Assembly: GCA_019638085.1 (NCBI GenBank) | Contig: JAHBUL010000001.1 | Location: 127,630 to 191,629, forward strand | Length of the DNA stretch: 64,000 nt | Direction: 5' to 3' | From: Flavobacteriales bacterium | GTDB taxonomy: Bacteria; Bacteroidota; Bacteroidia; Flavobacteriales_F; PHOS-HE28 | Shown here: in pieces, positions 9,242 to 60,550 of the stretch | Layout: every line of letters begins with the position of its first letter | How positions within the stretch are numbered: position 1 is the first letter of the stretch | Notes under the pieces: generated by a model | Database searches by the model: none | Told to the model about the DNA's origin: nothing | The model's input: only the letters and a program-made list of their open reading frames with translations | Program-made: the position numbers and the translations under genes

Positions 9242-10114
9242 ATGCAGCACTATTGGGACATCATCGTTAATTCCTACACGGGCTATTGGAACTACCTCGC
9301 AGGGGAAGTTTCGCACTTGACCTGGCACAACTACTTCTGGTGGCTGCTGGGGCTTTCGCTCTTCGCGTGGACGGCGGAGATCATCTTCCCTTGGCGTAAG
9401 GATCAGCGGCGTATCCGGCAGGATTTCTGGCTGGACGGCTTCTACATGTTCTTCAACTACTTCCTCTTCTCGTTGATCGCGTACAACGCGGTGAGCAATG
9501 TGGCGGTGGACCTGTTCAACAGTGCGTTGGCCAAACTGGGCATCTCCAACATCGTGGCAGTGGAGATCCATGGCTGGCCCCATTGGGCGCAGCTGCTCAC
9601 GCTTTTTATCGTGGCCGACTTCATCCATTGGAACGTACATCGCATGCTGCACCGCGTGCCTTGGATGTGGAAATTCCACCAAGTACATCACAGCGTGAAA
9701 CAGATGGGTTTCGCGGCACACTTGCGCTTTCATTGGATGGAGAACGTGTTCTACAAAAGCGCCCAATACATCCCTCTCGCGATGATCGGTTTCGGACTGA
9801 AGGACTTCTTCATCGTCCACATTTTCACCACGGCGATCGGGCACCTGAATCACAGCAACCTGAACCTCAGCTACGGCCCGCTGAAGTATGTGCTGAACAA
9901 CCCCGTGATGCATATTTGGCACCATGTGAAAGAGCTTCCTGAAGGCCGGAAATACGGAATGAATTACGGCATCAGTCTCAGTCTCTGGGACTATCTCTTC
10001 GGAACCGCTGAGATACCCTCCAACGGGCGCGATATCGAGCTGGGGTTCCCTGGTGACGAGACCTTTCCGAGGACATTCATCAAACAGATCGCCTTTCCAC
10101 CACGCAACGAATGA
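9242..10114 (+). CDS. Sterol desaturase / fatty-acid hydroxylase superfamily membrane protein
   Basis: Histidine boxes HWNVHRMLH, HQVHH and HIWHH; multiple predicted TM segments. Confidence 0.8.
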   Translation: MQHYWDIIVNSYTGYWNYLAGEVSHLTWHNYFWWLLGLSLFAWTAEIIFPWRKDQRRIRQDFWLDGFYMFFNYFLFSLIAYNAVSNVAVDLFNSALAKLGISNIVAVEIHGWPHWAQLLTLFIVADFIHWNVHRMLHRVPWMWKFHQVHHSVKQMGFAAHLRFHWMENVFYKSAQYIPLAMIGFGLKDFFIVHIFTTAIGHLNHSNLNLSYGPLKYVLNNPVMHIWHHVKELPEGRKYGMNYGISLSLWDYLFGTAEIPSNGRDIELGFPGDETFPRTFIKQIAFPPRNE

Positions 10115-10351: not shown

Positions 10352-10858
10352 ATGCCTTCACTCCGGCACATTGGCTTTTTACTGTTGCTACTGGCCGGCG
10401 GGGTCAATGCCTCCGCACAGCACGTACAGGAGTCCGCCTACCAAGAAAAGTTGCAGGGCTTGCTTTCGGACAAGACACCCGTGATCGATGTTCCGCAATT
10501 GGCCAAGAACCCGAAGGTGATGCTGCTGGATGCACGGCCCAAGGAGGAATTTGACGTGAGCCATATGGCCAAGGCGCGCCGCGTCGGCTACGACGACTTC
10601 GACATGGCCAAGGTGAAGGACCTGCCCAAGGACACGGCCATCGTGGTGTACTGCTCCGTAGGCTATCGTAGTGGAAAGGTCACCGAGAAACTGTTGAAGG
10701 CCGGCTTCACCAACGTGAGGAACCTCTATGGAGGCATTTTTGAGTGGGTGAACACAGGCCGCACCGTGGTGGATGATTCCGGAAAGCCGACGGATCGTAT
10801 CCACGCCTACGACAAGAACTGGTCGCGCTGGGTGTTGAAGAGAGAGAAGGTCTATTAG
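10352..10858 (+). CDS. Rhodanese-domain sulfurtransferase, secreted
   Basis: Signal peptide plus rhodanese active-site loop CSVGYRSG. Confidence 0.8.
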   Translation: MPSLRHIGFLLLLLAGGVNASAQHVQESAYQEKLQGLLSDKTPVIDVPQLAKNPKVMLLDARPKEEFDVSHMAKARRVGYDDFDMAKVKDLPKDTAIVVYCSVGYRSGKVTEKLLKAGFTNVRNLYGGIFEWVNTGRTVVDDSGKPTDRIHAYDKNWSRWVLKREKVY

Positions 10859-12369: not shown

Positions 12370-13644
12370 ATGCAGAACACGATGAAAGATGAACACCCAG
12401 CAGCAGTGGTGAACATCCCCGGATCCGGCGCGTCTGAGGGGATCGCACCGGCACCGGTTGACCCACAACTACGCTTTCAGGCCGTGCGTGATCGCACCGT
12501 TGCTATTTGTGCTCCGCTCAAAGTGGAGGATCATGTCATTCAGCCTGTTACCTATGTCTCACCCCCGAAGTGGCATCTGGCTCACACCACATGGTTCTTC
12601 GAGCAATTCATCCTGAAGGATAGCAAGGAGTATGAGCTGTTCAATGAGGATATGGCCTACATGTTCAACAGCTACTACGAGCATGTGGGGAAGCGCGTGC
12701 TGCGGGGTGATAGAGGGAACATGACCCGTCCAACACTGGAAGAGGTGCATGCCTATCGCCAGCATGTGGATGATGCGATGAACAAATTCCTCGCCGGCGG
12801 AGAGGCAAGCGAAGAGCAACTGCGGATCTTGGAACTCGGCCTCAACCACGAGGAGCAGCACCAGGAACTGCTGGTGACTGATTTGAAATACATCCTCGGG
12901 AACAACCCGCTGTTCCCGGTGTACGACGACTTCACCGAGAGCCGCCCGGAAAAGACCAAGGGTGACTTTATCCAGATCAACGGCGGCCTGTATTCCATCG
13001 GTTCCGAAGGAGAAGGCTTCAGTTTCGACAATGAGCATGCACGGCACCAAGTGTACGTGGATGATTTTGAGATCAGCGACCGCTTGGTGACCAACGGTGA
13101 ATTTCTGGCATTCATGGACGATGGCGGATACGCGGACTTCAACCATTGGCACAGTGATGGCTGGCAGTGGGTGAAGGACAACCAAGTACAAGCGCCGATG
13201 TACTGGCACAAAGTGGATGGCACTTGGCATTATTACACGCTGAAGGGCTTGACCGTGGTGGAGCCTAAGATGCCGCTCTGCCACATCTCCTTTTATGAGG
13301 CGTTTGCCTTTGCGGAATGGAGCGGAAAGCGCCTGCCTACCGAGGCGGAATGGGAAGTGGCGAACACAAGGTTCCAATGGGGCCAGCGCTGGGAATGGAC
13401 GAATAGCGCCTACCTGCCGTATCCGGGGTACAAGCGCGTTCCCGGTGCGCTGGGTGAATACAACGGCAAGTTCATGGTGAACCAAATGGTGTTGCGTGGT
13501 GCTTCAGTGGCCACCGCACCAAACCATTCGCGGGGAACGTATCGCAACTTCTTTCAGCCGGACCTGCGGTGGCAGCACTCGGGGCTGCGGTTGGCGAAGG
13601 ATGGAACTGTAAAAAAGGGATCGGGTGAACAGAAAACCGGATGA
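12370..13644 (+). CDS. egtB: Ergothioneine biosynthesis sulfoxide synthase EgtB (DinB_2 + FGE-sulfatase domains)
   Basis: Iron-binding HX3HXE motif (NHEEQHQE) in the N-terminal DinB-like domain and an FGE-type C-terminal domain (WEWTNSAY...GASVAT); start at internal Met 12370. Confidence 0.85.
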   Translation: MQNTMKDEHPAAVVNIPGSGASEGIAPAPVDPQLRFQAVRDRTVAICAPLKVEDHVIQPVTYVSPPKWHLAHTTWFFEQFILKDSKEYELFNEDMAYMFNSYYEHVGKRVLRGDRGNMTRPTLEEVHAYRQHVDDAMNKFLAGGEASEEQLRILELGLNHEEQHQELLVTDLKYILGNNPLFPVYDDFTESRPEKTKGDFIQINGGLYSIGSEGEGFSFDNEHARHQVYVDDFEISDRLVTNGEFLAFMDDGGYADFNHWHSDGWQWVKDNQVQAPMYWHKVDGTWHYYTLKGLTVVEPKMPLCHISFYEAFAFAEWSGKRLPTEAEWEVANTRFQWGQRWEWTNSAYLPYPGYKRVPGALGEYNGKFMVNQMVLRGASVATAPNHSRGTYRNFFQPDLRWQHSGLRLAKDGTVKKGSGEQKTG

Positions 13645-13651
13645 TCGGAAA

Positions 13652-14641
13652 ATGAAGGACGTGCTCGAAAAGACATCGGCAGCGACGGAAGAGTTCCGGG
13701 CGCATGTGCTTGCTGGACTTGCCAGCACACCGAAGAGGATCAGCTCGCGATATTTCTATGATGCTGAAGGCGACCGGCTCTTTCAGCAGATCATGGCCTC
13801 GGAGGATTATTATGTGACCCGTGCTGAGAATGAGATCTTACGGGATCAAACAGATGCGGTCCTCACGGCCTTGGCCAACGGACATCAACGCTTTTCCCTT
13901 TTCGAACTGGGTGCCGGTGATGGGGCGAAGACCAAGCATTTGTTAAGGCGCGCACTGGAGATGGGGCGCGATCCGCTCTATCGTCCCATTGACATTTCCG
14001 AGAATGCATTGGAACAATTAGGCACGACATTGAAGAAGGAACTTCCCGCACTTCGCTACCACGCGGAACAAGGTGAATATTTCGAGGCGATCGAACGGAG
14101 CTTCACTGATCCGTCCGAGGCGAAGGCCGTACTTTTCCTCGGTTCCAACATAGGAAATCTCGAACATGAGAGGGCCGTTGAATTACTGAAAGGGGTAGCG
14201 CAAAACCTCGGGCCGAACGACCGGTTCCTTGTCGGCTTTGACAGGAAGAAGGATCCCGCGACCATACGGCGTGCCTATAACGATAGCGAAGGCCATACAC
14301 GCGACTTCAACCTGAACTTGCTACGGCGGATAAACAATGAACTCGGTGCAGATCTCGATCTGGACCACTTCATCCACACACCCGTCTATGATCCCTCCAG
14401 CGGCCGCGCACTCAGCTACATCGTGAGCACCCGTGATCAGCAGGTCCATGTCCCTGGCTCGGAGCGGACCTTCCACTTCAAAGCATGGGAAGCACTGCAT
14501 ACGGAGATCAGCCAGAAGTACGATGATGAGATGATCGCCGATCTCGCCAAGCGCTCAGGCCTGAGGATCGCCGATCAATTCACGGACAGCAAAGGCTACT
14601 TCTCCGATGTTGTATTCGCACCTAAAGAGACGATGTCATGA
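13652..14641 (+). CDS. egtD: L-histidine N-alpha-methyltransferase EgtD
   Basis: Histidine-specific SAM methyltransferase signature (YFYDAEGDRLF, LFELGAGDG, FLGSNIGN); starts 8 nt after the egtB stop. Confidence 0.85.
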   Translation: MKDVLEKTSAATEEFRAHVLAGLASTPKRISSRYFYDAEGDRLFQQIMASEDYYVTRAENEILRDQTDAVLTALANGHQRFSLFELGAGDGAKTKHLLRRALEMGRDPLYRPIDISENALEQLGTTLKKELPALRYHAEQGEYFEAIERSFTDPSEAKAVLFLGSNIGNLEHERAVELLKGVAQNLGPNDRFLVGFDRKKDPATIRRAYNDSEGHTRDFNLNLLRRINNELGADLDLDHFIHTPVYDPSSGRALSYIVSTRDQQVHVPGSERTFHFKAWEALHTEISQKYDDEMIADLAKRSGLRIADQFTDSKGYFSDVVFAPKETMS

Positions 14642-14919
14642 AAGCTTTATGGAACGGCAAGACACTTGCCGAAAGCGACGATACGGTGGTGGTGGAAGGC
14701 AACCACTACTTTCCCGAGGACGCGATCAAGAAGGAATACTTCAAGCCGTCCACCACGCACACGCACGACCCATGGCGAGGTGAGGCGAGCTACTATACAT
14801 TGGAGGTGGACGGCAAGCGGAACCCGGATGCCGCCTGGTACTATCCCACGCCGCTGGACACCGTGAAGGAGGTCAAAGGGCGAGTGGCGTTCTGGAAGGG
14901 GGTTACCGTGGAGGGATAA
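14638..14919 (+). CDS. DUF427 domain protein
   Basis: ATGA overlap with the egtD stop; sequence DDTVVVEGNHYFP...ASYYTLEVDG is typical of DUF427. Confidence 0.7.
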   Translation: MKALWNGKTLAESDDTVVVEGNHYFPEDAIKKEYFKPSTTHTHDPWRGEASYYTLEVDGKRNPDAAWYYPTPLDTVKEVKGRVAFWKGVTVEG

Positions 14920-15010
14920 CCGCAGCGCATAGTTATCAGTTGCTCATTCTCAGTTGTCAAGGGTGACTGCGGATGACAACTTCGTGTTCTTTGTGGAAGA
15001 AGCGGACCCG

Positions 15011-16084
15011 TCACTTGCTGGTCAACGCTTTCACCAGTCGCTCCACATCCTCCTCGTCATTGTAGAAGTGGATCCCGATGCGGATGCCCGCGCCACGCAA
15101 CTGAGCCTGCACACCGGCCTCGCGCATTTTCGTCAAATGCTTTTCATCGCCTTCAATGATCAGGATCCCGCCACGCGTTGCCGGGTCCGTGCCGTTCAGC
15201 ACGCGCACACCAGCCTTCTGGAGCTGATCAACCGCAAGGTCACAGAGTTGCAAGAGGCGCTCCCTGACGGCATCGGCTCCAATGGCCAAGGACCGCTCCA
15301 CGGCATCACTCAGGCGCACCAGTGCGATCGGGTCCAAGTGGCCTTCACAAAGTGCTCCGATGGGGTCGAAGCCGTTCTTTTCCGATAGTTCCGTACGCAC
15401 TGTTTCCGAGAGGTGGAAGAAGCCATTTCCAAAACCTGCCAAAGGCCATTTGTATCCGCTGGAACCAACGATGTCAACGGGTGTGCGTCGCAGATCAATG
15501 GGCACGCTGCACCAGGACTGCGTGATATCCACCACGGACCAAGTTCCATGCGCACGGCACAATTCCGTCAATGCGTGCAGATCGATCATGAAGCCCGTCT
15601 GCCATTGCACATGGCTGATCGCCACGAGCTGTGGACGTTCACGTTGGATCGCCGCAGCCAGCACATCCATCGGGATCGTTCCGTCAGCAGCCGGCTCCAC
15701 TGCGACGATATCAAATCCGTTCCACTTGAACGGCGCATGCAGTGTGGGGTAATCCCCACCAACGAGCAGCACTTTCCTCCGGTGCTTCAGCATGGGTGCC
15801 AAGCGTGCCATCCCACCGGTGAAGTTCTGCAGCAAGGCCATTCCAGAAGCATTGCCACCCACATGCCGCGCAACGAGGCCCACGACATCCGCTTTTCCTT
15901 TCCCGTGCCAATGCATGAAGCGGGCGGAACCCTCCATCATCAGGCGCTCCTGCTCCTTGCGCGCCGCTTCTTCCGTGGAGCGTGCGATCAGGCCGCAGGA
16001 GGAGGTGTCCACATATGTGCCGCGTTCCAGACCGGGATAGTCCTTGCGGACCAGATCCCAGTTCGAGGTGTTCCGGTCTTCCAT
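15011..16084 (-). CDS. Class-V PLP-dependent aminotransferase/C-S lyase-like enzyme (candidate EgtE)
   Basis: Aminotransferase class V fold with PLP-lysine motif SSGYKW; convergent with the egtB-egtD-DUF427 unit. Confidence 0.75.
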   Translation of the reverse strand: MEDRNTSNWDLVRKDYPGLERGTYVDTSSCGLIARSTEEAARKEQERLMMEGSARFMHWHGKGKADVVGLVARHVGGNASGMALLQNFTGGMARLAPMLKHRRKVLLVGGDYPTLHAPFKWNGFDIVAVEPAADGTIPMDVLAAAIQRERPQLVAISHVQWQTGFMIDLHALTELCRAHGTWSVVDITQSWCSVPIDLRRTPVDIVGSSGYKWPLAGFGNGFFHLSETVRTELSEKNGFDPIGALCEGHLDPIALVRLSDAVERSLAIGADAVRERLLQLCDLAVDQLQKAGVRVLNGTDPATRGGILIIEGDEKHLTKMREAGVQAQLRGAGIRIGIHFYNDEEDVERLVKALTSK

Positions 16085-16300: not shown

Positions 16301-17047
16301 ATGACCAAGTCGACCCAGGAAAAGCCCGATTTCACAGGACTCAAGGCAATGTTCGTCAACTGTACACTGAAGCGGTCACCACAAAAAAGTCACACTTCCA
16401 AGCTGATCGAAGTATCCAAAGCGATCATGGAAAAGGAACGGGTTTCGGTGGAGGAGATCCGTTTGGTGGACCACGATGTGGCCAGTGGCATTTATCCGGA
16501 CATGAGGGAACACGGCTGGAAAACCGATGAATGGCCAACGCTTTTCAGGAAGCTTTTTGCGGCGGATATCCTCGTGGTCGGCACGCCGATCTGGTTGGGT
16601 GAAAAATCATCCATTGCGCAAAAGCTGATCGAACGCCTCTACGCCATGAGCGGCAAGACCAACGAGCAAGGCCAGTACCTGTACTATGGCAAGGTGGGTG
16701 GCTGTGTGGTCACGGGCAACGAGGATGGCATAAAGCATTGTGCCATGGGCATCTTGTACTCCCTACAGCATGTGGGGTATTCCATACCGCCGCAAGCGGA
16801 TTGTGGTTGGATCGGTGAAGTCGGACCGGGGCCTAGCTACGGCGACACTGAATGGAAGGGAAAGAAAGCGGACCCTCCCGTCGGCTTCGATTCCGATTTC
16901 ACCAACAGGAATACCACGTTCATGACCTACAATCTGTTGCACTTGGCAGCGATGTTGAAGAAGCAAGGCGGTTATCCCAATTATGGCAACTCCCGCGAGG
17001 CGTGGGATGAGGGTGAGCGTTGGGGTTTCCAACCCCGGAACCGTTGA
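16301..17047 (+). CDS. NADPH-dependent FMN reductase (flavodoxin-like fold)
   Basis: ADILVVGTPIWLGEKSS motif typical of the FMN_red family. Confidence 0.75.
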   Translation: MTKSTQEKPDFTGLKAMFVNCTLKRSPQKSHTSKLIEVSKAIMEKERVSVEEIRLVDHDVASGIYPDMREHGWKTDEWPTLFRKLFAADILVVGTPIWLGEKSSIAQKLIERLYAMSGKTNEQGQYLYYGKVGGCVVTGNEDGIKHCAMGILYSLQHVGYSIPPQADCGWIGEVGPGPSYGDTEWKGKKADPPVGFDSDFTNRNTTFMTYNLLHLAAMLKKQGGYPNYGNSREAWDEGERWGFQPRNR

Positions 17048-17114: not shown

Positions 17115-18335
17115 TCACTCCTTCTTCAACCACGTCACCACTTCCACTGTTTCGTGTAGAGTGCGATGCACCGGGCATCGATCGGCTATCTCCAACAAGC
17201 GCTTTCGCTGGGTATCGTCCAGATCTCCATGCAGTTCCACCATGCGCTCGAAGCGGTCGATCTTTCCGTTAGTGCCTTCCACGCAACTTTCGCAATCCTC
17301 AGCGTGGATCTTACCATGTTTCAGGTGAACGTAGGCTTCTTGCAGGTCCCACTTCTTTCGCTCGGCATACATCTTCATGGTCATTGCGGTGCAGGCACCC
17401 AGCGCAGCGCTCAGTAGATCATAGGGCGTAGGGCCGTAGTTGCTTCCCCCCACGCTTTCGGGCTCATCCGCCGTTAGGTGATGGCCACCGGCGAGGATCT
17501 GTGTGGTGTATTTCTCATTTGCGATGTGTACCACCACGGGCATGTCACTGTGCAGCTCTTCCTGTGGTTGCTCTTGTGTCAAATAGCGCTTCGACCAGGC
17601 GGCGATCATGCTGCCGGCATAATTGGAATCCGTGTTGTTGCTGAGTAAATGATCGGCACCGTCCAAACTGAGAAAGCTCTTCGGATGTCGTGCGGCTGCG
17701 AACAGCACGGCTGCATTGGCGATGCCCACCACGGTGTCCTGCGGGCTGTGGGCAATAAGGATGGGCTTGCGCAGATCGCCGAGGATGCTGGAGAGGTCCC
17801 GCTTCTCAAGGTCGTCCAGAAAGCCCTTCGCAATGGTGAACGCTCTCCCGCCGATGTTCACCTCGGCATGTCCTTCCGTCTTGATCTTTTCCAGATCTCC
17901 GCTGAACAATTTCTTGATGTGCCCCACATCGCCCGGCGCTCCGATAGTTGCCACGGCCTTGATGTTCTCCGCCTCGGAACCCGCCACGATGGCCGCCGCA
18001 CCACCCAGCGAATGCCCGATGAGCAAAGCAGGTTCCATGTGCTCGGTCTTCAGGTAGTCCATGGCAGCGTGAAGGTCGGCCACGTTGCTGCTGAAGTTGG
18101 TCTCACTGAATTCACCATCGCTCTGTCCCAGACCGGTGAAGTCGAAGCGTAGCACGCCAAAACCCGCACCGGTGAGTGCGCGGCTGATGTTGCGCACCGC
18201 ATGGAGGTCCTTGCTGCAGGTGAAGCAATGCGCGAAGAGTGCGAAGTGGATCGGCTTGCGATCCGCAGGCAGGTCGATACGAGCACTGAGCATGGTGCCC
18301 TCGGCATTGGGAAAGGTGATCGGGGTGCTTTTCAT
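17115..18335 (-). CDS. Alpha/beta-hydrolase fused to OsmC/Ohr-family peroxiredoxin-like domain
   Basis: GHSLGG nucleophile-elbow in the N-terminal half; OsmC-like C-terminal half with conserved Cys (GACTAMT). Confidence 0.8.
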   Translation of the reverse strand: MKSTPITFPNAEGTMLSARIDLPADRKPIHFALFAHCFTCSKDLHAVRNISRALTGAGFGVLRFDFTGLGQSDGEFSETNFSSNVADLHAAMDYLKTEHMEPALLIGHSLGGAAAIVAGSEAENIKAVATIGAPGDVGHIKKLFSGDLEKIKTEGHAEVNIGGRAFTIAKGFLDDLEKRDLSSILGDLRKPILIAHSPQDTVVGIANAAVLFAAARHPKSFLSLDGADHLLSNNTDSNYAGSMIAAWSKRYLTQEQPQEELHSDMPVVVHIANEKYTTQILAGGHHLTADEPESVGGSNYGPTPYDLLSAALGACTAMTMKMYAERKKWDLQEAYVHLKHGKIHAEDCESCVEGTNGKIDRFERMVELHGDLDDTQRKRLLEIADRCPVHRTLHETVEVVTWLKKE

Positions 18336-18564
18336 GTTACTTCGATGAAGGGCTATTGGCCGCTGGTCCTGCGTTCTGCTGCCAGTGATCATGGGTGGAT
18401 GGAATGTCAAATAGGTCTCTTTCAGGCACCCTTGTCGAGAGCACGAGCTATACGGTTTTGCCTACAACTTAATGCTATATGGACAAGGTCGAGGTACTTC
18501 TTGTTCCTGACGGGTTATCACAACATTCTTGATCACTATAAGCAGCACCGATAGCTTTGTCGGC

Positions 18565-19143
18565 ATGCCAATTGCCTACCACACTGTGGAAAAGCGCGAG
18601 TTCAACGAATGGGTGCATGCGCACACCGGCGACCTGCTCCGTTATGCCAAGACGCGCGTGCGGGAGGAGGCTGAGGCCGAGGACCTGGTTCAATCGGCAT
18701 TCGTTGCCGCTTGGGAAGGACGAAAGAAATACGCGCAGCAAAGCAGCCCGCGCACGTGGCTTTTCTCAATTCTGAAGAACAAGATCGCCGACCATTGGCG
18801 CAAGGCCTACCGGGATCCCGTGGTCCATGGCCAGGAGCCGGTGGACGCGGACTTCTTCGGTGACAACGGGCGCTGGGCCCCGGGACATATACCGGCAGAA
18901 TGGGGACTCGGTGGGCCGGACCAAGCGGAACAGATGCATCGCTTCCTCGCCGATTGTCTCCGGCTATTGCCGTCCCATTGGCGGGCAGTGGTTGAAATGA
19001 AGTTCCTGAAAGACAAGGATGCCGAGTTGATCTGTCAGGAGCTTGGGATCAGCGCGACGAACTACTGGCAACAGATACACAGGGCCAAGGTGCGGCTGCG
19101 CGAATGCATCAGCACCAAGATCACGAAAGACAACCACCACTGA
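18565..19143 (+). CDS. ECF-subfamily RNA polymerase sigma factor
   Basis: Sigma-70 regions 2 and 4 (DLVQSAFVAAWE...; ELICQELGIS...WQQIHRAKVRLR). Confidence 0.85.
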   Translation: MPIAYHTVEKREFNEWVHAHTGDLLRYAKTRVREEAEAEDLVQSAFVAAWEGRKKYAQQSSPRTWLFSILKNKIADHWRKAYRDPVVHGQEPVDADFFGDNGRWAPGHIPAEWGLGGPDQAEQMHRFLADCLRLLPSHWRAVVEMKFLKDKDAELICQELGISATNYWQQIHRAKVRLRECISTKITKDNHH

Positions 19144-19144
19144 T

Positions 19145-19402
19145 ATGGGACTTATGCAAACCCTCATGCTCTCCTGCCGCAAGGCTGCCGAGCTTACCGA
19201 GCGGCAGTCCTTTGCGCCGCTACCTGCGGTACAGGGATTCCAGCTTTGGATGCACACCCGGATCTGTGCCGGTTGCCAGGCCTACCAGCGGCAGAGCAAA
19301 CGGATCGACTTGCTCCTCGAACAACGCGGCACGGAGACCGCGCTCCGGCCCACAGGGCCCATGGAGGAGCGCATCATTGCAGCGATCAGCTGCAAGAATT
19401 GA
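19145..19402 (+). CDS. Zinc-binding (ZAS-type) anti-sigma factor
   Basis: Starts 1 nt after the sigma stop; HX3CX2C motif HTRICAGC. Confidence 0.65.
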   Translation: MGLMQTLMLSCRKAAELTERQSFAPLPAVQGFQLWMHTRICAGCQAYQRQSKRIDLLLEQRGTETALRPTGPMEERIIAAISCKN

Positions 19403-19427
19403 AACCACAGAAAAGTATCCGATCACC

Positions 19428-19766
19428 ATGTCAAAGAAGTACTATGACCCTGTAGACCTCGGCAAATTCGGCGACATCGCCGAGTTCCAGAAACCCATGG
19501 CGGATAAATTCTTCGCATGGTACAATGAAGTCTTCAAGGAGGGCGCTCTTACCGCCCGGGAGAAATCCTTGATCGCACTGGCTGTTGCACATGGCGTGCA
19601 ATGCCCGTATTGCATCGATGCATACAGTACCGATGCACTGGAAAAGGGCTGTAGTGAGGCCCAGATGATGGAGGCCGTGCATGTGGCTGCCGCGATCCGT
19701 GGAGGGGCGACATTGGTGCATGGCACGCAAATGATGAATCACGTAAAGGCCCTGACCGGAGCATGA
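19428..19766 (+). CDS. AhpD/carboxymuconolactone-decarboxylase-family peroxidase-like protein (arsenosugar-biosynthesis-associated type)
   Basis: CxxC motif VQCPYCIDAY in an AhpD-like fold; directly precedes the ArsS gene. Confidence 0.75.
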   Translation: MSKKYYDPVDLGKFGDIAEFQKPMADKFFAWYNEVFKEGALTAREKSLIALAVAHGVQCPYCIDAYSTDALEKGCSEAQMMEAVHVAAAIRGGATLVHGTQMMNHVKALTGA

Positions 19767-20803
19767 AGAGCCTGTTGGCACAACAGGCCCTATTGAGCGC
19801 AGCCTCCGAGCAGCGGCGTGTGCTGGAGGACCCGGGTTCGGCGCTGCCTTTTTTTGCCAAAAAACTGGCCGAGAGCGGATTGCCCGAGTTGCGTGCCACC
19901 GAGCTGGAAGTGCTGCAGCTCAACCTCGGCCGCATGTGCAACCAAACCTGTGTACACTGCCATGTGGATGCCGGGCCGGATCGCAAGGAGCGCATGAGCC
20001 GCGAGGTGATGGAGGATTGCCTGCGCTCCTTGGATGCGCACCCCGTGCGTACCGTGGACCTTACTGGAGGCGCCCCTGAGATGCACCCTGATTTCCGCTG
20101 GTTCGTGGAGCGATTGAGCGAAACGGGATGCCACATCATCGTGCGATGCAACCTCACCATCATCCTGGCCAACAAGAAGTACCACGACCTGCCTGAATTC
20201 TACCGGAAGCACCGCGTGGAAGTAGTGAGCTCGCTCCCGTTCTATACTGCCGACCGCACCGATCGCCAACGCGGGAAGGGCGTGTTCGAGCATTCCATCG
20301 AAGCCCTGAAGATGCTGAACGCCGTGGGCTATGGCATGCCCGATAGCGATCTGGAATTGAACTTGGTCTACAATCCGGCCGGCGCATTCTTGCCGGGATC
20401 ACAGGACGAACTGGAGAAGCAGTTCAAGAGAAGTTTGATGGCGGACCATGGGATCCAGTTCCACAAGCTGTTCGCCATCACCAACCTGCCGATCAGCCGA
20501 TTTCTGGAATACCTCGTGCGCACCGAACATTACGTGGGATACATGGAGCGCTTGGTCAACGCCTTCAATCCCGCTGCGGTGGCCGGTGTGATGTGCCGCA
20601 ACATGGTCTCCGTATCGCACGATGGGAGCATCTACGATTGTGACTTCAACCAGATGCTGGACCTGCCGTTGAGCGCTGGAATGCCACGCCACATCCGCGA
20701 CCTGGCCGATGCGAACGTGGCGGGCAGGCTGATCGTGACCGGCAGACATTGTTACGGATGCACCGCCGGCGCGGGCAGTAGTTGTGGCGGCTCCGTGGCA
20801 TGA
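19763..20803 (+). CDS. arsS: ArsS-family radical SAM protein with Cys-rich C-terminal domain
   Basis: Radical SAM CNQTCVHCH cluster motif and C-terminal CYGCTAGAGSSCGGS tail; ATGA overlap with the upstream gene. Confidence 0.8.
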   Translation: MKSLLAQQALLSAASEQRRVLEDPGSALPFFAKKLAESGLPELRATELEVLQLNLGRMCNQTCVHCHVDAGPDRKERMSREVMEDCLRSLDAHPVRTVDLTGGAPEMHPDFRWFVERLSETGCHIIVRCNLTIILANKKYHDLPEFYRKHRVEVVSSLPFYTADRTDRQRGKGVFEHSIEALKMLNAVGYGMPDSDLELNLVYNPAGAFLPGSQDELEKQFKRSLMADHGIQFHKLFAITNLPISRFLEYLVRTEHYVGYMERLVNAFNPAAVAGVMCRNMVSVSHDGSIYDCDFNQMLDLPLSAGMPRHIRDLADANVAGRLIVTGRHCYGCTAGAGSSCGGSVA

Positions 20804-21408
20804 GTACCAGGCCATTGCTTCTTGTATTTCTGCGCGCTCCCGTGCTGGGGAAAGTAAAAACGCGCTTGGCCGCCACCATGGGGAAGGAAAGGGCGCTGGA
20901 GATCTACAAGCGATTACTTCAGCACACCATTGAACAAGGCGCGGCCTTGGACGTGGACCGTCAGGCGTGGTACGCTGATGAAATTGCCGACCCGGAACCT
21001 TGTGCCGAACTGGGCTACTCGGTGTATGTGCAAGCAGGCAGGGACCTCGGCGATCGTATGAAATGCGCGTTCGGATCAGGTTTCTCCGCCGGTCACGGTC
21101 CCATCATCATTATCGGTACGGACCTCCCCCAGCTGAGCGCCGCTCTGCTTCGCGAAGCCTATATGGCGCTGGAAACCCATGATGCGGTGATCGGTCCCGC
21201 CAACGACGGTGGCTACTACCTATTGGGCTTACGAGAGCCATGTGAGGAGGTCTTCAGCGGGAAGGCTTGGAGTTCGGACAGTGTATATGCACAGACCATT
21301 GAAGACCTGCGTCAGCTAGGTCGCACCTACCATACGCTTCCGACATTGATCGACATTGACACGGCGGAGGACCTCAAAAGCGTTGAAATTCCGGGAGTGG
21401 CTCGCTGA
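20800..21408 (+). CDS. TIGR04282-like (DUF2064) nucleotidyl/glycosyl-transferase-like protein associated with ArsS clusters
   Basis: N-terminus STRPLLLVFLRAPVLGKVKTRL typical of DUF2064; ATGA overlap with arsS. Confidence 0.7.
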   Translation: MSTRPLLLVFLRAPVLGKVKTRLAATMGKERALEIYKRLLQHTIEQGAALDVDRQAWYADEIADPEPCAELGYSVYVQAGRDLGDRMKCAFGSGFSAGHGPIIIIGTDLPQLSAALLREAYMALETHDAVIGPANDGGYYLLGLREPCEEVFSGKAWSSDSVYAQTIEDLRQLGRTYHTLPTLIDIDTAEDLKSVEIPGVAR

Positions 21409-21613: not shown

Positions 21614-22354
21614 ATGCTACAGATCAAGGACCTCCATGCCCGCATTGAAGGCAAGGATATTTTGAAAGGCCTCAACCTGGAGGTGAACGCAGGTGAGGTA
21701 CACGCCATTATGGGACCCAACGGAAGTGGCAAAAGCACCTTGGCCAACGTATTGGCCGGGCGCGCCGAATACGAGGTGACCGGGGGAAGCGTGAAGTACT
21801 TTGGAGAGGACCTGCTGGAACTGGCCCCGGAAGAGCGGGCGTGGAAGGGCATCTTTCTCGCCTTCCAATATCCGGTGGAGATCCCCGGGGTAAGCAACAT
21901 GAATTTCCTGCGTACTGCATTGAACGAAGGGAAGAAGGCCCGGGGTGAGGCTGAGCTCAGCGGTAAGGACTTCCTCGCTTTGGTCCGCGAACGCGCCAAG
22001 CTGGTGGAGATGGATCCCGCCCTGATGAACCGCAACCTGAACGTGGGGTTCAGCGGGGGTGAAAAAAAGCGCAACGAGATCTTCCAAATGGCCATGCTGG
22101 AGCCCAGACTGGGCATCCTCGATGAGACAGATAGCGGATTGGACATCGACGCATTGCGCGTGGTTGCAAGCGGAGTGAATACCCTGCGCGCCAAGGACAA
22201 CGCCTTTATCGTGGTGACCCACTACCAGCGCTTGCTGGATCATATCATTCCGGATGTGGTCCACGTGATGGCTGATGGCAAGATCATTCGCAGTGGTCCC
22301 AAGGAGTTGGCCTTGGAGTTGGAGGAAAAAGGATACGATTGGGTGAAAGCGTGA
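21614..22354 (+). CDS. sufC: Fe-S cluster assembly ATPase SufC
   Basis: Walker A GPNGSGKST and ABC signature FSGGEKKR, SufC-like throughout. Confidence 0.9.
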   Translation: MLQIKDLHARIEGKDILKGLNLEVNAGEVHAIMGPNGSGKSTLANVLAGRAEYEVTGGSVKYFGEDLLELAPEERAWKGIFLAFQYPVEIPGVSNMNFLRTALNEGKKARGEAELSGKDFLALVRERAKLVEMDPALMNRNLNVGFSGGEKKRNEIFQMAMLEPRLGILDETDSGLDIDALRVVASGVNTLRAKDNAFIVVTHYQRLLDHIIPDVVHVMADGKIIRSGPKELALELEEKGYDWVKA

Positions 22355-22460
22355 TCGCCGATCAGCCGATGAAATACCGATGCCGCTACACAAGTTGCAC
22401 GGAACTCGTGGAACGCATCGTTACCGTCGAGGCAAGGACTCGACCCCTATAAGCATTGAG

Positions 22461-23786
22461 ATGAGCACCGATCAGATAATGGAACTTAATAAGGACGGGA
22501 GATCTCCCGACACGTTGGATATATCAGGCCCCAAGGCCAGTGTGATGGCGCTGTTGCAAGATGGCACCTGGCCCTTGGCTGCAGAAGCTTTTGCTCGGGT
22601 ACAGGAGTTGCCCATCCCCGACAGGCGGACCGAAATGTGGAAGTACACACGGGTCGCCAAGCTCTTCACCGAAACCTATGGCAAGCCCTTGGGCAATGTG
22701 ATCGTGGAACTTCCGCCGCGCATGCCTTTTCCGACCACCCGCGTGGTCTTCGTGAACGGGCATTTCCGCCCCGACCTCAGTGATGACCGGAAGACGGATA
22801 AAGGCGTTGTGATCGACAGCATCTCGCATCACCTGAGCCATGGGCCGCTAAAAGCACTTTACGGACAGATCGCACCCATTGGTGACCGATTGTTCACGGC
22901 GATGAACATGGCTTCGCCCACGGATGGCCTGTTCATCCTGGCCACCAAGGGCTCGAAGACCAGCAAGCCCATCCATGTGCTGCGCATTACCACGCCCATG
23001 AGCGATGGCCAAGCCATGTTGATCCAACCGCGGGACCTTTTCATGCTGAAGGAAGGTGCTGAGGTGGAGGTGATCGATGAGCATATCTCGATCGGGAACA
23101 CCACGTCCTCGCTGGTGAACGGCGTGCGTGAAAGTGTTGTGGGTGAGGGCGCAAACCTCACGCTGCACCTGTTGCAGAATGAACCCGATGGTCCGGCCGA
23201 TATCGGACTGGACAGCGTGAAGATCGCGGCCAAAGGGAATTTCAGCGTCGATACCACGACGCTCTACGGTTCGCTGGTGCGTAACGAATTGAACGTGGCA
23301 CTCGATGGTGCCGAGGCGCATGCCGAACTCAACGGCGTGTACCTGCTCAACGGTACAGCGCACTGCGACAACCACAGTTACATCGGGCACAACGTGCCGG
23401 ATTGCACCAGCGACGAGCTGTACAAGGGCGTAATTGCCGACAAGGCCACGGGCGTATTCAATGGCAAGGTGTACGTGAAGCAGGATGCCCAACGCACCCG
23501 TGCCTATCAACGGAACGCGAATATCCTTCAGGGTGAACATGCCCGCGTGTATTCCAAGCCCGAACTGGAGATCTACGCGGATGACGTGAAGTGCAGCCAC
23601 GGATGTACGATCGGCCGCATGGATGAAGAGGCCATCTTCTACCTCCGCTCACGTGGTGTAAGTGAGGAAGAGGCGCGCCGCATGATGTCGCATGCGTTCA
23701 TGGTGGATGTGCTGGAGCGCGTTACGAATCCGGATTGGAGAAAACACTTGGGCGATATGATCGATGCAAAGTTGGAAGAGCTATGA
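22461..23786 (+). CDS. sufD: Fe-S cluster assembly protein SufD
   Basis: SufBD-family C-terminal region; positioned between sufC and sufS. Confidence 0.85.
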   Translation: MSTDQIMELNKDGRSPDTLDISGPKASVMALLQDGTWPLAAEAFARVQELPIPDRRTEMWKYTRVAKLFTETYGKPLGNVIVELPPRMPFPTTRVVFVNGHFRPDLSDDRKTDKGVVIDSISHHLSHGPLKALYGQIAPIGDRLFTAMNMASPTDGLFILATKGSKTSKPIHVLRITTPMSDGQAMLIQPRDLFMLKEGAEVEVIDEHISIGNTTSSLVNGVRESVVGEGANLTLHLLQNEPDGPADIGLDSVKIAAKGNFSVDTTTLYGSLVRNELNVALDGAEAHAELNGVYLLNGTAHCDNHSYIGHNVPDCTSDELYKGVIADKATGVFNGKVYVKQDAQRTRAYQRNANILQGEHARVYSKPELEIYADDVKCSHGCTIGRMDEEAIFYLRSRGVSEEEARRMMSHAFMVDVLERVTNPDWRKHLGDMIDAKLEEL

Positions 23787-23877
23787 AGAGGAGAACCGCC
23801 AAGACGCAAAACACGCCAAGAATTCACGCCATCCGGTGCATTTCACGTTGCGCTTAGCGTCTTTGCGGTAAAAAACA

Positions 23878-25134
23878 ATGACGAACTCAATCTCAGCGGT
23901 AAAGCCTGCCTTCGACGTGGAGGAGATCCGTGCACAATTCCCGATATTGAAGGAACTGGTGCATGGCAAGCCGCTGGTCTATTTCGATAATGCCGCAACC
24001 AGCCAGAAGCCGCGTCGTGTGATCAAGGCCGAAAGCGCCTACTACGCCAAGATCAACGCGAACGTCCATCGCGGAGTGCATACGCTGAGCACCTTGGCCA
24101 CCGATGCACAGGAGGCCGCTCGCGAGATCATCCGCGCGCACATCAACGCGAAGCACGTACATGAGGTGATCTTCACCGCTGGTACGACGGCCAGCATGAA
24201 TCTCGCGGCAAACAGCCTCGGACAATTGTTATTGAAGCCGGGTGATGAAGTACTCATCAGTGGCATGGAACACCACGCGAACATCGTTCCCTGGCAATTG
24301 GTCTGTGAGCGATATGGCGCCACGTTGAAGGTGATCCCCATCACGGATACCGGTGAGTTGGACATAGCAGCAGCTGAACAGATGATCGACTCATCAGCTG
24401 ATCGCTTAAAGATCCTATCGCTCACCCACGTCAGCAACACGCTCGGCACGATCAATCCGGTCAAGCAGTTGATCGCTGACGCGAAAAAGCGGGGCATCGT
24501 TACGGTACTCGATGGTGCCCAAGCGGTGCCGCACATGGCCGTGGATGTACAGGATCTCGGCTGCGACCTGTACGCATTCAGCGGACACAAAATGTATGCA
24601 CCCACCGGCATCGGCGTGCTATATGGTCGCGAGGAATTGCTGGAGCAAATGCCACCTTGGCAAGGCGGCGGCGAGATGATCGACCAGGTCACCTTTGAGA
24701 AGACCACCTTCGCCAAGCTACCCTTCAAGTTCGAGGCGGGTACGCCGCACATCGCGGGCATCATCGGCTTGGGCGAGGCCTTCCGCTGGATGCAGGACTA
24801 TGACCTGGAGGCCATGGCAGCGCACGAACATGCGCTGCAGGAACATGCAACCAAGGAGCTGCTCGCCATCGAGGGCTTGCGCATCATCGGAACAGCGAAG
24901 GAGAAAGTGGGTGTGATCAGCTTCGTCATTGATGGGGTTCATCATTACGACCTAGGCACGCTGCTCGACCAGCAAGGTATCGCGGTGCGCACGGGCCACC
25001 ACTGCACACAGCCGTTGATGGACCACTTCGGTATCAGCGGGACCACGCGGGCAAGCTTCGCACCTTTCAATACGACCGCTGAAGTGGATGCCATGGTGGC
25101 GGCCACGAAGAAGGCGGTGAAGATGTTGCGATGA
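23878..25134 (+). CDS. sufS: Cysteine desulfurase SufS
   Basis: Class-V aminotransferase fold with SufS-type motifs (FSGHKMYAPTGIG; RTGHHCTQP). Confidence 0.9.
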   Translation: MTNSISAVKPAFDVEEIRAQFPILKELVHGKPLVYFDNAATSQKPRRVIKAESAYYAKINANVHRGVHTLSTLATDAQEAAREIIRAHINAKHVHEVIFTAGTTASMNLAANSLGQLLLKPGDEVLISGMEHHANIVPWQLVCERYGATLKVIPITDTGELDIAAAEQMIDSSADRLKILSLTHVSNTLGTINPVKQLIADAKKRGIVTVLDGAQAVPHMAVDVQDLGCDLYAFSGHKMYAPTGIGVLYGREELLEQMPPWQGGGEMIDQVTFEKTTFAKLPFKFEAGTPHIAGIIGLGEAFRWMQDYDLEAMAAHEHALQEHATKELLAIEGLRIIGTAKEKVGVISFVIDGVHHYDLGTLLDQQGIAVRTGHHCTQPLMDHFGISGTTRASFAPFNTTAEVDAMVAATKKAVKMLR

Positions 25135-25553
25135 ACACCTCATTGAAAGAAGCCCAACAGGAGATCGTGGACGAGTTCGCCATGCTCGGCGATTGGCAGG
25201 ACCGCTATGAGCACCTGATCGAGCTGGGGAAGGAACTGCCATTGATCGCACCCGAACTCAAGACGGATGAGAACCTTGTGCGCGGATGCCAGAGCCGGGT
25301 ATGGCTCACCGCTGAAGATCGGGGAGAAGCCATCCATTTCACTGCGGACAGTGATGCGATGATCACCAAAGGCTTAGTAGCGCTGCTGGTACGTGTGCTG
25401 AACGACCGCACGCCCGAGGAGATCATGGGCACTCCGCTCACCTTCATCGATGCCATTGGTCTGCGCGAACACCTTTCACCCAACCGCAGCAACGGCCTCG
25501 TGGCCATGCTGGACCAGATGAAGCGGTATGCGTTGGTTTATTCCTCGAAATGA
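25131..25553 (+). CDS. sufE: Cysteine desulfuration protein SufE
   Basis: SufE family with conserved Cys in RGCQSRVWL; overlaps the sufS stop. Confidence 0.85.
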   Translation: MNTSLKEAQQEIVDEFAMLGDWQDRYEHLIELGKELPLIAPELKTDENLVRGCQSRVWLTAEDRGEAIHFTADSDAMITKGLVALLVRVLNDRTPEEIMGTPLTFIDAIGLREHLSPNRSNGLVAMLDQMKRYALVYSSK

Positions 25554-28696: not shown

Positions 28697-30001
28697 TCAG
28701 GTTCCGATGGCCATCGGCTTCCTGAACCCGCGTGCCTCCCGGATGATGAACGCTCCCAGTACAACGTATTCGATCGCTAGCCACCAGTACGGCTGTGCAT
28801 ACGGCACACTGCCATAGGTGAGGTAGGTGGGCACGATCAGTAGTGACCAGAGGACAGGCCATCGCCAACGGGTCAGCGGCGCTAAAGCCACCAACGGCAG
28901 GATGTACCACGGATGCACCACTTGCGAGCAGCTCAGGTAGATGGCCAGCAGCCACAACATCGCCTCCGGCCATGGCGTACGCCTGGTTCTCCACAGCCAA
29001 AGCGAATACGCACCTAAGCCGATCAATGCGATCGCGCCCAGCAGCCCGGTGCCTTTCACCAGGGCATCACCAAACAGCCGGCGCAGCCCTTCGAACAGAA
29101 CGCCGTTGAATTCGAGATAGCTCACAAAGAGCTTAAGGATGCTGCCAAGGTGCGCGAAGAACCCGGGAGTGTAGAGCGGGATCCAAGAGGCCACGAAGAG
29201 GATGAGCGTGATCGCGAAAAAGCGGACCGAGCGCCGCCAGCCGAGCTGCGAGGGGATCCATGCGAGTAGGATCAAGGGCCACAACTTGGCGGCTGCGGCG
29301 ATGGCGATGAGCACCGCTGCCGCATCGTAGCGCTTCTGGCGGAACAGGTGGATCGCCCAAAGGCAAGGCGCGATCATCAGCACTTCGCTGTGCAGGTTCA
29401 CGTTGAATTCCATCAGCACCAACGGATTCAGTGCGTAGAGGCCCACCTTCCGCACGCGATCGGGTGCATCCTTCAAGAGCACGCCCAGCGCGGTGATCGT
29501 GGCCAGGTCGAAGACGATGGACACGAAGCGCAGCACGAGCGTGGAGTACCATATATCACCTTGGCCCAAGCCTGCCGCGATCGCGTATACCAACTGCGCG
29601 ACCGGCGGGTACACGGAATGGAAGTGCGGTGAATTCAGCTTCGCATACAGTGCGGGCGTGAAGACCTGCGGCATTGTTTTCACCAGTTCATCCGGCGTGA
29701 ACGCAAATGGGGAGATCCCGTGGATCGAGCAGAGGCCGTCCCAGATGTAGCGGTAGTGATCGTCCGTCCAGGTGATCGGCGCGAGGAAGAGCAGTACCCG
29801 CAGCACGACCGCCACGACCATGAGCTGCTTCCATGTCAGTTGCGATCGGCGATCGACCCACAGATAGGTGAAGAAGGCCGTGCCGAAACCGAGCAAGAGT
29901 TGCAGGCTTTGCGAGCGTGATGGACCATAGCCCAGAAAGAGCACGGCAGCAGCAAGCAAAATGATCGGGACGAGGCGTTGAGCGATGCGCGTGCTCATCA
30001 T
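28697..30001 (-). CDS. GT-C fold membrane glycosyltransferase (DUF2029/GT87-like mannosyltransferase family)
   Basis: Polytopic membrane protein resembling DUF2029; start at internal Met 30001, overlapping the stop of the upstream GT2 gene. Confidence 0.65.
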   Translation of the reverse strand: MMSTRIAQRLVPIILLAAAVLFLGYGPSRSQSLQLLLGFGTAFFTYLWVDRRSQLTWKQLMVVAVVLRVLLFLAPITWTDDHYRYIWDGLCSIHGISPFAFTPDELVKTMPQVFTPALYAKLNSPHFHSVYPPVAQLVYAIAAGLGQGDIWYSTLVLRFVSIVFDLATITALGVLLKDAPDRVRKVGLYALNPLVLMEFNVNLHSEVLMIAPCLWAIHLFRQKRYDAAAVLIAIAAAAKLWPLILLAWIPSQLGWRRSVRFFAITLILFVASWIPLYTPGFFAHLGSILKLFVSYLEFNGVLFEGLRRLFGDALVKGTGLLGAIALIGLGAYSLWLWRTRRTPWPEAMLWLLAIYLSCSQVVHPWYILPLVALAPLTRWRWPVLWSLLIVPTYLTYGSVPYAQPYWWLAIEYVVLGAFIIREARGFRKPMAIGT

Positions 30002-31470: not shown

Positions 31471-32162
31471 CAGCGGTATTTGATGATGGTGGTGATGATC
31501 TTCCAGCCCGCCAGCACCGAGCCCTTCACCGTGCCGCTGATCTTCGAAAAGCCGATCCGCTTGCGGTAATCCACGGGCACTTCCGTGATCCGCAGGCGCT
31601 GTTTCGCGGCCTTCAGTTGCATCTCCACCGTCCACCCGAAGGTACGATCGCGCATGCCCATGGCCTGAAGCGCTTCCCAACGCACGGCACTGAACGGGCC
31701 GAGATCAGTGTATTTCACGCCGTAGAAAAGCTTGAGCATTCGTGTTGCCAACCAGTTGCCGAAGATCTGCTGGGGCATCATGCTGCCCGCATCACGATGG
31801 CCCAACGCACGCGAACCGATCACGAAGTCGGCATGTCCCTCGACGATCGGCGTGACCACTTCCGTCATCTGCTCCGGGTGGTCGCTGTTGTCCGCGTCGA
31901 TGAAAACCACGATGTCCGGCGGCGGCTCGTGCGTGGCTACCTGCGCAATGCCCTTCAAGCAGGCATTGCCGTAGCCGCGCTCCGGCTGGTCCACCACGAT
32001 GGCGCCCGCAGCCCGGGCCATCTCGCTGGTCTTGTCGCTGCTGGCGTTGTTCACCACCACGATATGGCGCACCAATCCTTTAGGGATGTCGCGCACCACC
32101 AGGCCCACGGCCTCCTGCTCATTGAAAGCGGGGATGATGACGTCGATGATCGGTGCTGGCAT
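31470..32162 (-). CDS. Family-2 glycosyltransferase, dolichyl/polyprenyl-phosphate sugar synthase-like
   Basis: N-terminus IIPAFNEQEAV and DAD-type motif FIDADNSD; stop overlaps the start of the next gene. Confidence 0.75.
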   Translation of the reverse strand: MPAPIIDVIIPAFNEQEAVGLVVRDIPKGLVRHIVVVNNASSDKTSEMARAAGAIVVDQPERGYGNACLKGIAQVATHEPPPDIVVFIDADNSDHPEQMTEVVTPIVEGHADFVIGSRALGHRDAGSMMPQQIFGNWLATRMLKLFYGVKYTDLGPFSAVRWEALQAMGMRDRTFGWTVEMQLKAAKQRLRITEVPVDYRKRIGFSKISGTVKGSVLAGWKIITTIIKYR

Positions 32163-35176: not shown

Positions 35177-35227
35177 GTGCGAAATTTGTGCGATGCGCGT
35201 GCCTCATTGGCTGTCGCGATCATCACA

Positions 35228-38156: not shown

Positions 38157-38204
38157 ATGATCGCTGATTTTTTACTGTAAGGAGAATGGATTCTTCCGGA
38201 AGGA

Positions 38205-60503: not shown

Positions 60504-60550
60504 GGCGCAAAGGTGTGCCGGAACAGGTTTTCCGATGTACTTGTTCCGAG

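Follow-up and report, generated by a model that had tools for sequence, protein, structure and literature searches.

The DNA analysed here is a 64-kb stretch from a Flavobacteriales bacterium (assembly GCA_019638085.1, contig JAHBUL010000001.1, positions 127,630 to 191,629), hereafter called the window. At positions 18565-21408 it carries five closely packed genes: an extracytoplasmic function (ECF) sigma factor, a small anti-sigma factor resembling the zinc-binding anti-sigma (ZAS) proteins, and the core module of ArsS, an enzyme of the radical S-adenosylmethionine (SAM) type flanked by an AhpD-like protein and a transferase-like protein of the TIGR04282 family. The linkage of this module with the sigma gene is conserved in relatives and recurs in unrelated contigs, and the Cys/His residues of the anti-sigma are invariant. 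The explanation preferred here, to which about an even chance is given, is that an ECF switch for thiol, oxidant or metalloid stress recruited the core ArsS module, and that the five genes form one operon controlled by the sigma factor and its ZAS-like partner. By analogy with its family, ArsS most likely performs the known reaction, the adenosylation of dimethylarsenite, DMAs(III).

Composition and recurrence of the sigma-ArsS unit

Regarding the layout, all five open reading frames (ORFs) are on the + strand, and they encode the sigma factor (18565-19143; 192 aa, TIGR02943-like), the anti-sigma (19145-19402; 85 aa), the AhpD-like protein (19428-19766), ArsS (19763-20803; 346 aa) and the TIGR04282/DUF2064 transferase-like protein, which is CofC-like (20800-21408). 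The gaps are, in order, 1, 25, -4 and -4 nt, so that start and stop codons overlap between the AhpD-like and ArsS genes and between the ArsS and TIGR04282 genes; no terminator-like site occurs on the + strand within the unit. A preliminary description, made from the sequence, had presented these genes as one tight unit and assigned each to a family; its coordinates and gaps were reproduced, and all five assignments were confirmed in Pfam and NCBIfam scans, the best NCBIfam models of the sigma and the anti-sigma being matched with scores below the curated cut-offs. Identical gene calls were obtained on the matching contig JBARXX010000048.1 (GCA_049647565.1) and on three more contigs with an identical ArsS, and a sigma protein identical to that of the window, whose GC content is ∼57%, is found in Flavobacteriales metagenome-assembled genomes (MAGs). 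Divergently from the sigma gene lies the gene for an alpha/beta-hydrolase-OsmC fusion (17115-18335, - strand; Pfam Hydrolase_4 and OsmC), likely a member of the same regulatory unit. The flavin mononucleotide (FMN) reductase encoded at 16301-17047 was considered as an ArsH and rejected, because it has no NCBIfam match.

As for the module, the window ArsS scores 448 bits against the TIGR04167 equivalog (cut-off 300) and matches PF04055; its radical SAM motif, CNQTCVHC, contains cysteines C59, C63 and C66, and its C-terminus is a DUF3641 domain (PF12345) with a Cys-rich tail. The radical SAM cysteines are invariant in a 13-sequence alignment, and so are C330, C333 and C341. The AhpD-like protein has a CxxC motif (CPYC) and is of the "arsenosugar biosynthesis-associated peroxidase-like" type (TIGR04169, 173.6 bits, cut-off 120; Pfam CMD), while the last protein of the unit reaches 202.6 bits against TIGR04282 (cut-off 134), with matches to PF09837 and PF01983. 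The characterised ArsS transfers the 5'-deoxyadenosyl group to DMAs(III), yielding DDMAA (PMC13598754).

The module was compared with a reference set of 80 species-level Bacteroidota ArsS loci from a genome collection, for which the neighbours were clustered, the recurrent clusters annotated and hidden Markov models (HMMs) built. The window ArsS is 57-77% identical to these 80 homologues and 57-64% identical to those linked to arsM. An AhpD-like gene is directly upstream of ArsS in 70 of the 80 loci and a TIGR04282 gene is downstream in 53; both flank ArsS in the window, as they do in the arsenosugar biosynthesis gene cluster. The full cluster of many Flavobacteriaceae comprises the AhpD-like protein, ArsS, a rhodanese of subfamily NF045521, TIGR04282, a purine nucleoside phosphorylase (PNP), ArsM (NF038099, 577 bits) and TIGR04283, often then followed by a fatty-acid-hydroxylase family protein and a 282-aa protein. 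Full flanks of ±6 kb are available for 53 of the 80 loci, to which the counts of nearby arsM refer: arsM is within 6 kb of ArsS in 21 and not in 32, and the minimal layout of the window, with TIGR04282 and without ArsM, PNP and TIGR04283, occurs in 11. Two accessory genes of the full cluster are present in the window, both on the + strand: the rhodanese (10352-10858; 188 bits, cut-off 145; 180 bits with the locus-derived HMM), which lies between ArsS and the TIGR04282 gene in other Bacteroidota and 9 kb upstream here, and the fatty-acid-hydroxylase family membrane protein (9242-10114; locus-derived HMM 357 bits; PF04116), a frequent member of ArsS clusters elsewhere that is displaced in the window. 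Elsewhere, the rhodanese gene sits with arsM in 14 of 18 loci, and the hydroxylase gene does so in 10 of 15.

In the closest species-level ArsS locus (L005, 77% identity, from a Flavobacteriales MAG), the match to the AhpD-like gene at 5287-5718 falls into two parts on separate ORFs (45 and 112 bits), which suggests a frameshift or an assembly error; no sigma or anti-sigma gene was found upstream of it.

The linkage itself was followed from the sigma, in genomes that encode related sigmas and in metagenome contigs scanned with a sigma alignment, the scan giving 80 sigma loci. In the genome locus L165, whose sigma is 77% identical to that of the window, the divergent hydrolase-OsmC gene, the sigma gene, a called anti-sigma gene and AhpD-ArsS-TIGR04282 are all kept; in L167 (66% identical) the hydrolase-OsmC gene, the sigma gene and AhpD-ArsS-TIGR04282 are kept, with a 283-nt uncalled gap in the place of the anti-sigma gene. 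The flanks of these relatives differ from those of the window, L165 having a PGK gene instead of sufC downstream and L167 having no EgtBD upstream. Further sigma-linked ArsS genes are on metagenome contigs with 36-37% GC whose ArsS proteins are closest to Chitinophagaceae, and which are for these reasons regarded as far from the 57% GC lineage of the window: L136 (37% GC) has the order sigma-DUF6789-anti-sigma-DUF6799-AhpD-ArsS-PNP-TIGR04282 with gaps of -4 to 73 nt, L108 has a similar arrangement, and in L119 and L122 ArsS lies 1.3-1.5 kb downstream of the sigma/anti-sigma pair. The ArsS-linked sigmas fall into at least three subclades of a neighbour-joining tree of the 80 sigmas, and 7 of 39 loci that extend 3 kb or more downstream of the sigma carry ArsS there. 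The adjacency is a minority arrangement, yet it is recurrent and more than chance, because related genomes have conserved the unit amid changed flanks and unrelated low-GC contigs show it again. L015, a Chitinophagaceae MAG, adds to this recurrence with an anti-sigma homologue beside AhpD-ArsS.

The sigma/anti-sigma pair and its regulatory DNA

The sigma factor consists of Sigma-70 regions 2 and 4 only (PF04542 and PF08281, the latter of type r4_2); it scores 76.2 bits against TIGR02937 (cut-off 42.9), and its best NCBIfam model is TIGR02943, with 128.9 bits, below the 162.2 cut-off. Two cysteines of region 4, C131 (18955-18957) and C181 (19105-19107), are invariant in all 80 family members, and a third, C157, is present in 65 of them. 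In an hhalign profile alignment (probability 88%), C131 and C181 align with C133 and C183 of Mycobacterium tuberculosis SigK (PDB 4nqw), the SigK sequence used having been validated against that PDB entry; SigK as a whole matches the sigma family profile only weakly (E 0.0075), and the claim is limited to the alignment of the Cys pair. According to the ECF classification paper (PMC7826278), the SigK pair forms a disulfide that senses oxidative stress and is conserved in ECF18 and ECF19.

The anti-sigma carries the motif HTRICAGC, given for it as a ZAS-type protein in the preliminary description, plus C11, and it matches NF052368 (E 7e-11). The ZAS-like Cys/His site is indeed present: C11, H37, C41 and C44 form C-x25-H-x3-C-x2-C, that is, an H-x3-C-x2-C motif with an upstream Cys ligand position, and none of the four varies in 69 of 69 homologues. 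The ligands of RsrA, C11/H37/C41/C44, presumably have the same spacing. An AlphaFold2 model, built from a shallow alignment, has three helices and a predicted local distance difference test (pLDDT) score of 75, and a weak match to PF13490 was obtained for 7 of 20 relatives (best E 0.0019). The protein is called here ZAS-like, and not a proven ZAS, because its support from curated models and fold comparison is weak. Its family is large: in a representative library, 1000 cluster representatives matched its profile at E ≤ 0.001, and the 150 listed are almost all 75-97 aa long. One library protein, P0392 (306 aa), has the anti-sigma domain at its C-terminus (residues 224-301), perhaps fused to another domain. 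Most of the 80 metagenome loci have a small anti-sigma homologue no more than a few hundred nt away from the sigma gene, and ORF clustering places one in 63.

Elsewhere, the neighbours of this sigma family comprise DUF6799, DUF6789 and an epimerase besides genes of redox or metal stress, namely bufferin-like operons, a DCC1-like thiol-disulfide oxidoreductase, DoxX, the OsmC fusion, FMN reductase and EgtBD. In seven metagenome loci (L105, L114, L125, L139, L154, L157 and L159), the sigma and the small C-H-C-C anti-sigma directly precede bufferin-like operons, made of a Cys-rich precursor, an MNIO enzyme (PF05114), DUF2063 and DoxX, and the family therefore appears to control metal or oxidative-stress genes. 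Bufferins are linked to copper stress (PMC12452194, PMC11626156), and their published clusters list sigma/NrsF pairs, in which NrsF is a membrane anti-sigma (PMC12452194); for this reason, the loci found here look like a different regulator pairing. The suggestion that the sigma is dedicated to an arsenic or selenium response was not upheld, since stress-type genes of many kinds are found behind this sigma/anti-sigma family; this variation also means that the family is not dedicated to ArsS, and it looks like a general regulator of thiol, oxidant or metal stress with exchangeable downstream genes.

Ergothioneine genes are found at 12382-16084 of the window, 2.5-6 kb upstream of sigma; they encode EgtB (TIGR03440, 525 bits), EgtD (276 bits, just under the cut-off), a DUF427 protein and, on the opposite strand, an EgtE-like class V aminotransferase. 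EgtB-EgtD genes are also directly upstream of a sigma homologue in the metagenome loci L121, L124, L126 and L127, which belong to another sigma subclade, and this suggests that ergothioneine synthesis belongs to the sphere of this sigma family.

Regarding the regulatory DNA, the divergent intergenic region contains the semi-palindrome GGACAAGGTCGAGGTACTTCTTGTTC (18481-18506; GGACA-N16-TGTTC), a candidate sigma-dependent promoter or operator. It is the best-conserved intergenic block upstream of the sigma gene across the window, L165 and L167; in L086 and L088 the sigma gene is preceded by look-alikes of the form GGACR-N16-TGTCC, and with up to two mismatches the semi-palindrome has two sites in the window against 0.24 expected. 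Its geometry, read as GGACA-N17-GTT, is like that of SigR/SigH-type promoters. The second copy, GAACAGGTTTTCCGATGTACTTGTTC, is at 60521-60546, ∼18 nt upstream of the gene for a DAO-family FAD oxidoreductase (∼59463-60503, - strand), a further gene that this regulator may control. Closer to the sigma gene, the -7-like box TAGCTTTG (18552-18559, + strand) stands 5 nt before the ATG as a candidate basal promoter; it fits TAnnTTTG, presumably the consensus of the -7 box of the Bacteroidetes primary sigma, and a TA(G/C)CTTT(G/C) box is at the same place in L085, L088, L090, L092, L094, L096, L098, L165 and L167. This suggests that TAGCTTTG may give basal, near-leaderless expression of the sigma.

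Another motif, TGTWA-N15-18-YCGWC, was found in 17 of 70 ArsS loci (Flavobacteriaceae, L027-L083, e.g., L040, L042, L050 and L078), mostly 34-60 nt upstream of the AhpD ATG, with none on the opposite strand and a shuffle mean of 0.25. Its geometry is ECF-promoter-like; in some loci, however, it overlaps a housekeeping-type -33/-7 promoter, so that the motif could instead be an operator. As a target of the sigma studied here it was rejected: it is absent near the window operon and upstream of the sigma genes, and so it cannot be tied to this sigma.

Competing explanations and the surrounding genes

Several observations weigh against a redox-responsive sigma/anti-sigma switch in control of an arsenic-related operon, and they concern the nature of the anti-sigma, the regulatory DNA, the frequency of the linkage and the arsenic genes. 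The score of the anti-sigma against NF052368, 41.7 bits, is below the cut-off of 50, which makes its ZAS membership partial; the protein has no match to Pfam zf-HC2 (PF13490), none in phmmer and profile searches of PDB sequences, and none at E ≤ 0.001 when its AlphaFold2 model is compared with the PDB by Foldseek. Many ZAS proteins, moreover, are not redox sensors. As for the DNA, no ECF -35/-10 motif shared across the sigma family emerged, dyad counting on 75 upstream regions giving only AT-rich noise, and the palindromic element at 18481-18506 could be an operator bound by a repressor; a strand control cannot separate promoter from operator at this site, because the element is palindromic. 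A real switch with a signal other than thiol oxidation, in which the Cys/His site is a structural zinc site, as in non-redox ZAS proteins, and the cue is copper, another metal, a light-generated species or one perceived mainly by the sigma Cys pair, is unlikely. It draws on the invariant SigK-like cysteines and on the established point that sequence alone does not tell redox-active from structural ZAS sites. Further in its favour, relatives of the pair precede bufferin-like operons, and bufferins are tied to copper stress (PMC12452194, PMC11626156), whereas the OsmC, AhpD-like, DCC1 and EgtBD neighbours lean towards thiol or peroxide stress; the thiol-oxidation and soft-metal readings overlap, since soft metals and oxidants both act on thiols. 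The frequency of the linkage bears on whether the adjacency is a lineage-specific accident, with the pair serving the hydrolase-OsmC gene and unlinked targets, and the ArsS module having landed downstream to be read through or kept under its own control. Among the 80 species-level ArsS loci, no sigma homologue is within 6 kb of ArsS and an anti-sigma homologue is next to it in one, a Chitinophagaceae MAG (L015) where it lies upstream of AhpD-ArsS without a sigma ORF in the preceding 800 nt, the link being with the anti-sigma only; the other 79 have neither nearby. L085 (sigma 59% identical) has the FMN reductase, the hydrolase-OsmC gene in divergent position, the sigma and the anti-sigma without ArsS, L169 (56% identical) has unrelated neighbours, and the downstream genes of the sigma family are highly variable. 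Such an accident is nonetheless unlikely in view of the 25-nt gap, the overlapping start and stop codons downstream of it and the lack of a + strand terminator-like site, of the conservation of the unit over 66-100% sigma identity despite changed flanks, and of the recurrence of the linkage in low-GC, Chitinophagaceae-like contigs of other sigma subclades.

As for the arsenic genes, a six-frame search with the locus-derived HMMs found no NF038099-type arsM, PNP or TIGR04283 gene in the 64-kb window, where the TIGR04283-type search gave only weak matches to family 2 glycosyltransferases (GT2; 35 bits) at 29998-32162; the loci of the relatives contain none of the three, and neither do the 10 kb beyond the right end, as seen on contigs with an identical gene. 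The left end is covered only partly by L171, a related genome of different arrangement. No Pfam or NCBIfam match to arsB, ACR3, arsC or arsR occurs among the window genes scanned or precomputed, a few small ORFs being unscanned, and the 10 kb beyond the right end show no ars gene either. The unit has an ArsS-family enzyme and an ECF sigma, and it departs from the full arsenosugar cluster in that arsM is not encoded with ArsS. The preliminary description had likewise reported no arsenic genes in the 64 kb, which held for all genes scanned with HMMs, Pfam and NCBIfam; it had also taken the lack of arsM as pointing to a different chemistry, as one of two options, and this part was not supported. 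Missing arsM is not unusual among Bacteroidota ArsS loci (32 of 53), the window enzyme is well above the equivalog cut-off, and different chemistry is not indicated, because absence of arsM is common in Bacteroidota and the two arsM-associated accessory genes, the rhodanese and the fatty-acid hydroxylase, are retained. The corresponding explanation, that an ArsS-family enzyme of an arsM-poor clade acts on a soft nucleophile other than arsenic, such as a selenium or sulfur compound, and yields a stress-induced 5'-deoxyadenosyl-derived metabolite, is quite unlikely. It can claim the absence of arsM and PNP in the window, past its right end and in the relatives, the position of the window ArsS in a run of ∼11 loci in tree order, none with arsM nearby, the closeness of the EgtB and EgtD genes, and the selenoprotein forms of the ArsS family (PMC13188914). 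It has to contend with the score of 448 bits against a 300-bit cut-off and the 57-64% identity to arsM-linked homologues, with the intermixing of arsM-linked and unlinked ArsS in the tree outside that run, with the 60% of Bacteroidota loci that have no arsM nearby anyway, with the retention of the two arsM companions in the window, and with the PNP genes of the Chitinophagaceae-like sigma-linked loci, which fit the arsenosugar route. A bolder proposal, likewise quite unlikely, makes ArsS of this Flavobacteriales clade no arsenic enzyme but one of a thiol-stress regulon that adenosylates another soft nucleophile, such as a selenium or sulfur metabolite, possibly connected with the neighbouring ergothioneine pathway, with the C-H-C-C anti-sigma as the sensor.

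Among the other genes of the window, those at 32304-35203 (- strand) encode a membrane protein of the NapH-like Fe-S type and an FAD-dependent pyridine nucleotide-disulfide oxidoreductase (682 and 656 bits with locus-derived HMMs); their counterparts adjoin ArsS in six other Bacteroidota loci, and the window copies neighbour GT2 glycosyltransferases at a distance of 11 kb from ArsS. The suf genes stand in two places, with sufC, sufD, sufS and sufE at 21614-25553 (+ strand), after a 205-nt gap from the ArsS unit, and sufB with an Fe-S_biosyn (PF01521) gene at 36708-38531 (- strand), 11 kb away; they are not considered part of the unit, because a PGK gene follows it in L165. Finally, a 401-aa ORF beginning MHYIGIDVSKAKLD (47146-48351, - strand) resembles an IS110-family transposase; on L170, a contig with an identical sufB, nothing of the kind is called between the Laminin_G_3 and TfoX genes, and the ORF may be a recent insertion.

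Proposed mechanism and comparison with known systems

If an ECF stress switch does control the ArsS operon, the basal housekeeping-type promoter beside the ATG would keep the sigma and the anti-sigma at low levels, and the anti-sigma would hold the sigma through its C11/H37/C41/C44 site, presumably zinc-bound. Thiol-reactive stress would then attack this Cys/His site, and possibly also C131/C181 of the sigma. Oxidants, electrophiles and soft metals or metalloids, trivalent arsenicals among them, are the candidates for this stress, and since trivalent arsenicals are thiol-reactive, their direct sensing by the site is a plausible conjecture. The freed sigma would raise its own operon via the candidate element at 18481-18506, in a predicted autoregulation, and it would probably also drive the divergent hydrolase-OsmC gene. 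ArsS would add the 5'-deoxyadenosyl group to dimethylarsenite, its putative substrate, with the AhpD-like and TIGR04282 proteins acting before or after this step; possible sources of the methylated arsenic are an arsM at another, unlinked place in the genome, the environment and other organisms.

A literature search found no paper linking an ECF sigma to ArsS, DUF3641, TIGR04167 or TIGR04282; the main text of the ECF classification paper (PMC7826278) has no radical SAM or arsenic context. The components are of known kinds, and the undescribed variants are the sigma-ArsS coupling and, in Bacteroidota, the combination of a small C-H-C-C anti-sigma with a sigma that has SigK-like cysteines. The ArsS/AhpD-like/TIGR04282 module is very common in heterotrophic Bacteroidota and physiologically obscure, and no account of its regulation was found in the literature searched; its link to a sigma/anti-sigma pair offers the testable hypothesis that adenosylation of organoarsenicals, or whatever the actual job of the module is, is induced by thiol-reactive stress and not through an ArsR-type repressor. 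In addition, the small C-H-C-C anti-sigmas emerge as a large, uncharacterised family in Bacteroidota; their partners are SigK-like, Cys-bearing sigmas, and the genes downstream of them are of the bufferin-like and ergothioneine kinds or serve redox or metal defence in other ways. Direct triggering of the switch by trivalent arsenicals, if it proves true, would make it an arsenic sensor of a new type.

Among known systems, the window pair resembles SigR-RsrA and SigH-RshA (ECF12 with a ZAS) in that a small soluble anti-sigma is encoded right after the ECF sigma and the neighbourhood is rich in thiol-homeostasis genes; it differs from them in that the anti-sigma has no detectable sequence or fold match to solved ZAS proteins, the sigma is TIGR02943-like and not ECF12, the host belongs to the Bacteroidota and not to the Actinobacteria, and redox sensing is a prediction. 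With SigK-RskA and the groups ECF18 and ECF19 it shares the Cys pair of region 4, window C131/C181 corresponding to SigK C133/C183, for which a disulfide is predicted in the window sigma; its anti-sigma, however, is an 85-aa soluble Cys/His protein, while the RskA type is a membrane protein. As for SigF-NrsF and the bufferin clusters, whose products are MNIO-dependent ribosomally synthesized and post-translationally modified peptides (RiPPs), members of the window sigma family are directly upstream of such operons in the seven metagenome loci described above; the partner there is the small C-H-C-C protein, and the genes downstream in the window are those of the ArsS module. Classical ars operons are under ArsR repressors. 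Finally, compared with the arsenosugar gene set, the window is without ArsM, PNP and TIGR04283 in its 64 kb and its module stands behind an ECF sigma/anti-sigma pair, whereas the likeness is close in the AhpD-like, ArsS and TIGR04282 genes, which are in the usual order, with overlapping stop codons and scores above the curated cut-offs, and extends to the rhodanese NF045521 and the fatty-acid hydroxylase encoded in the same window.

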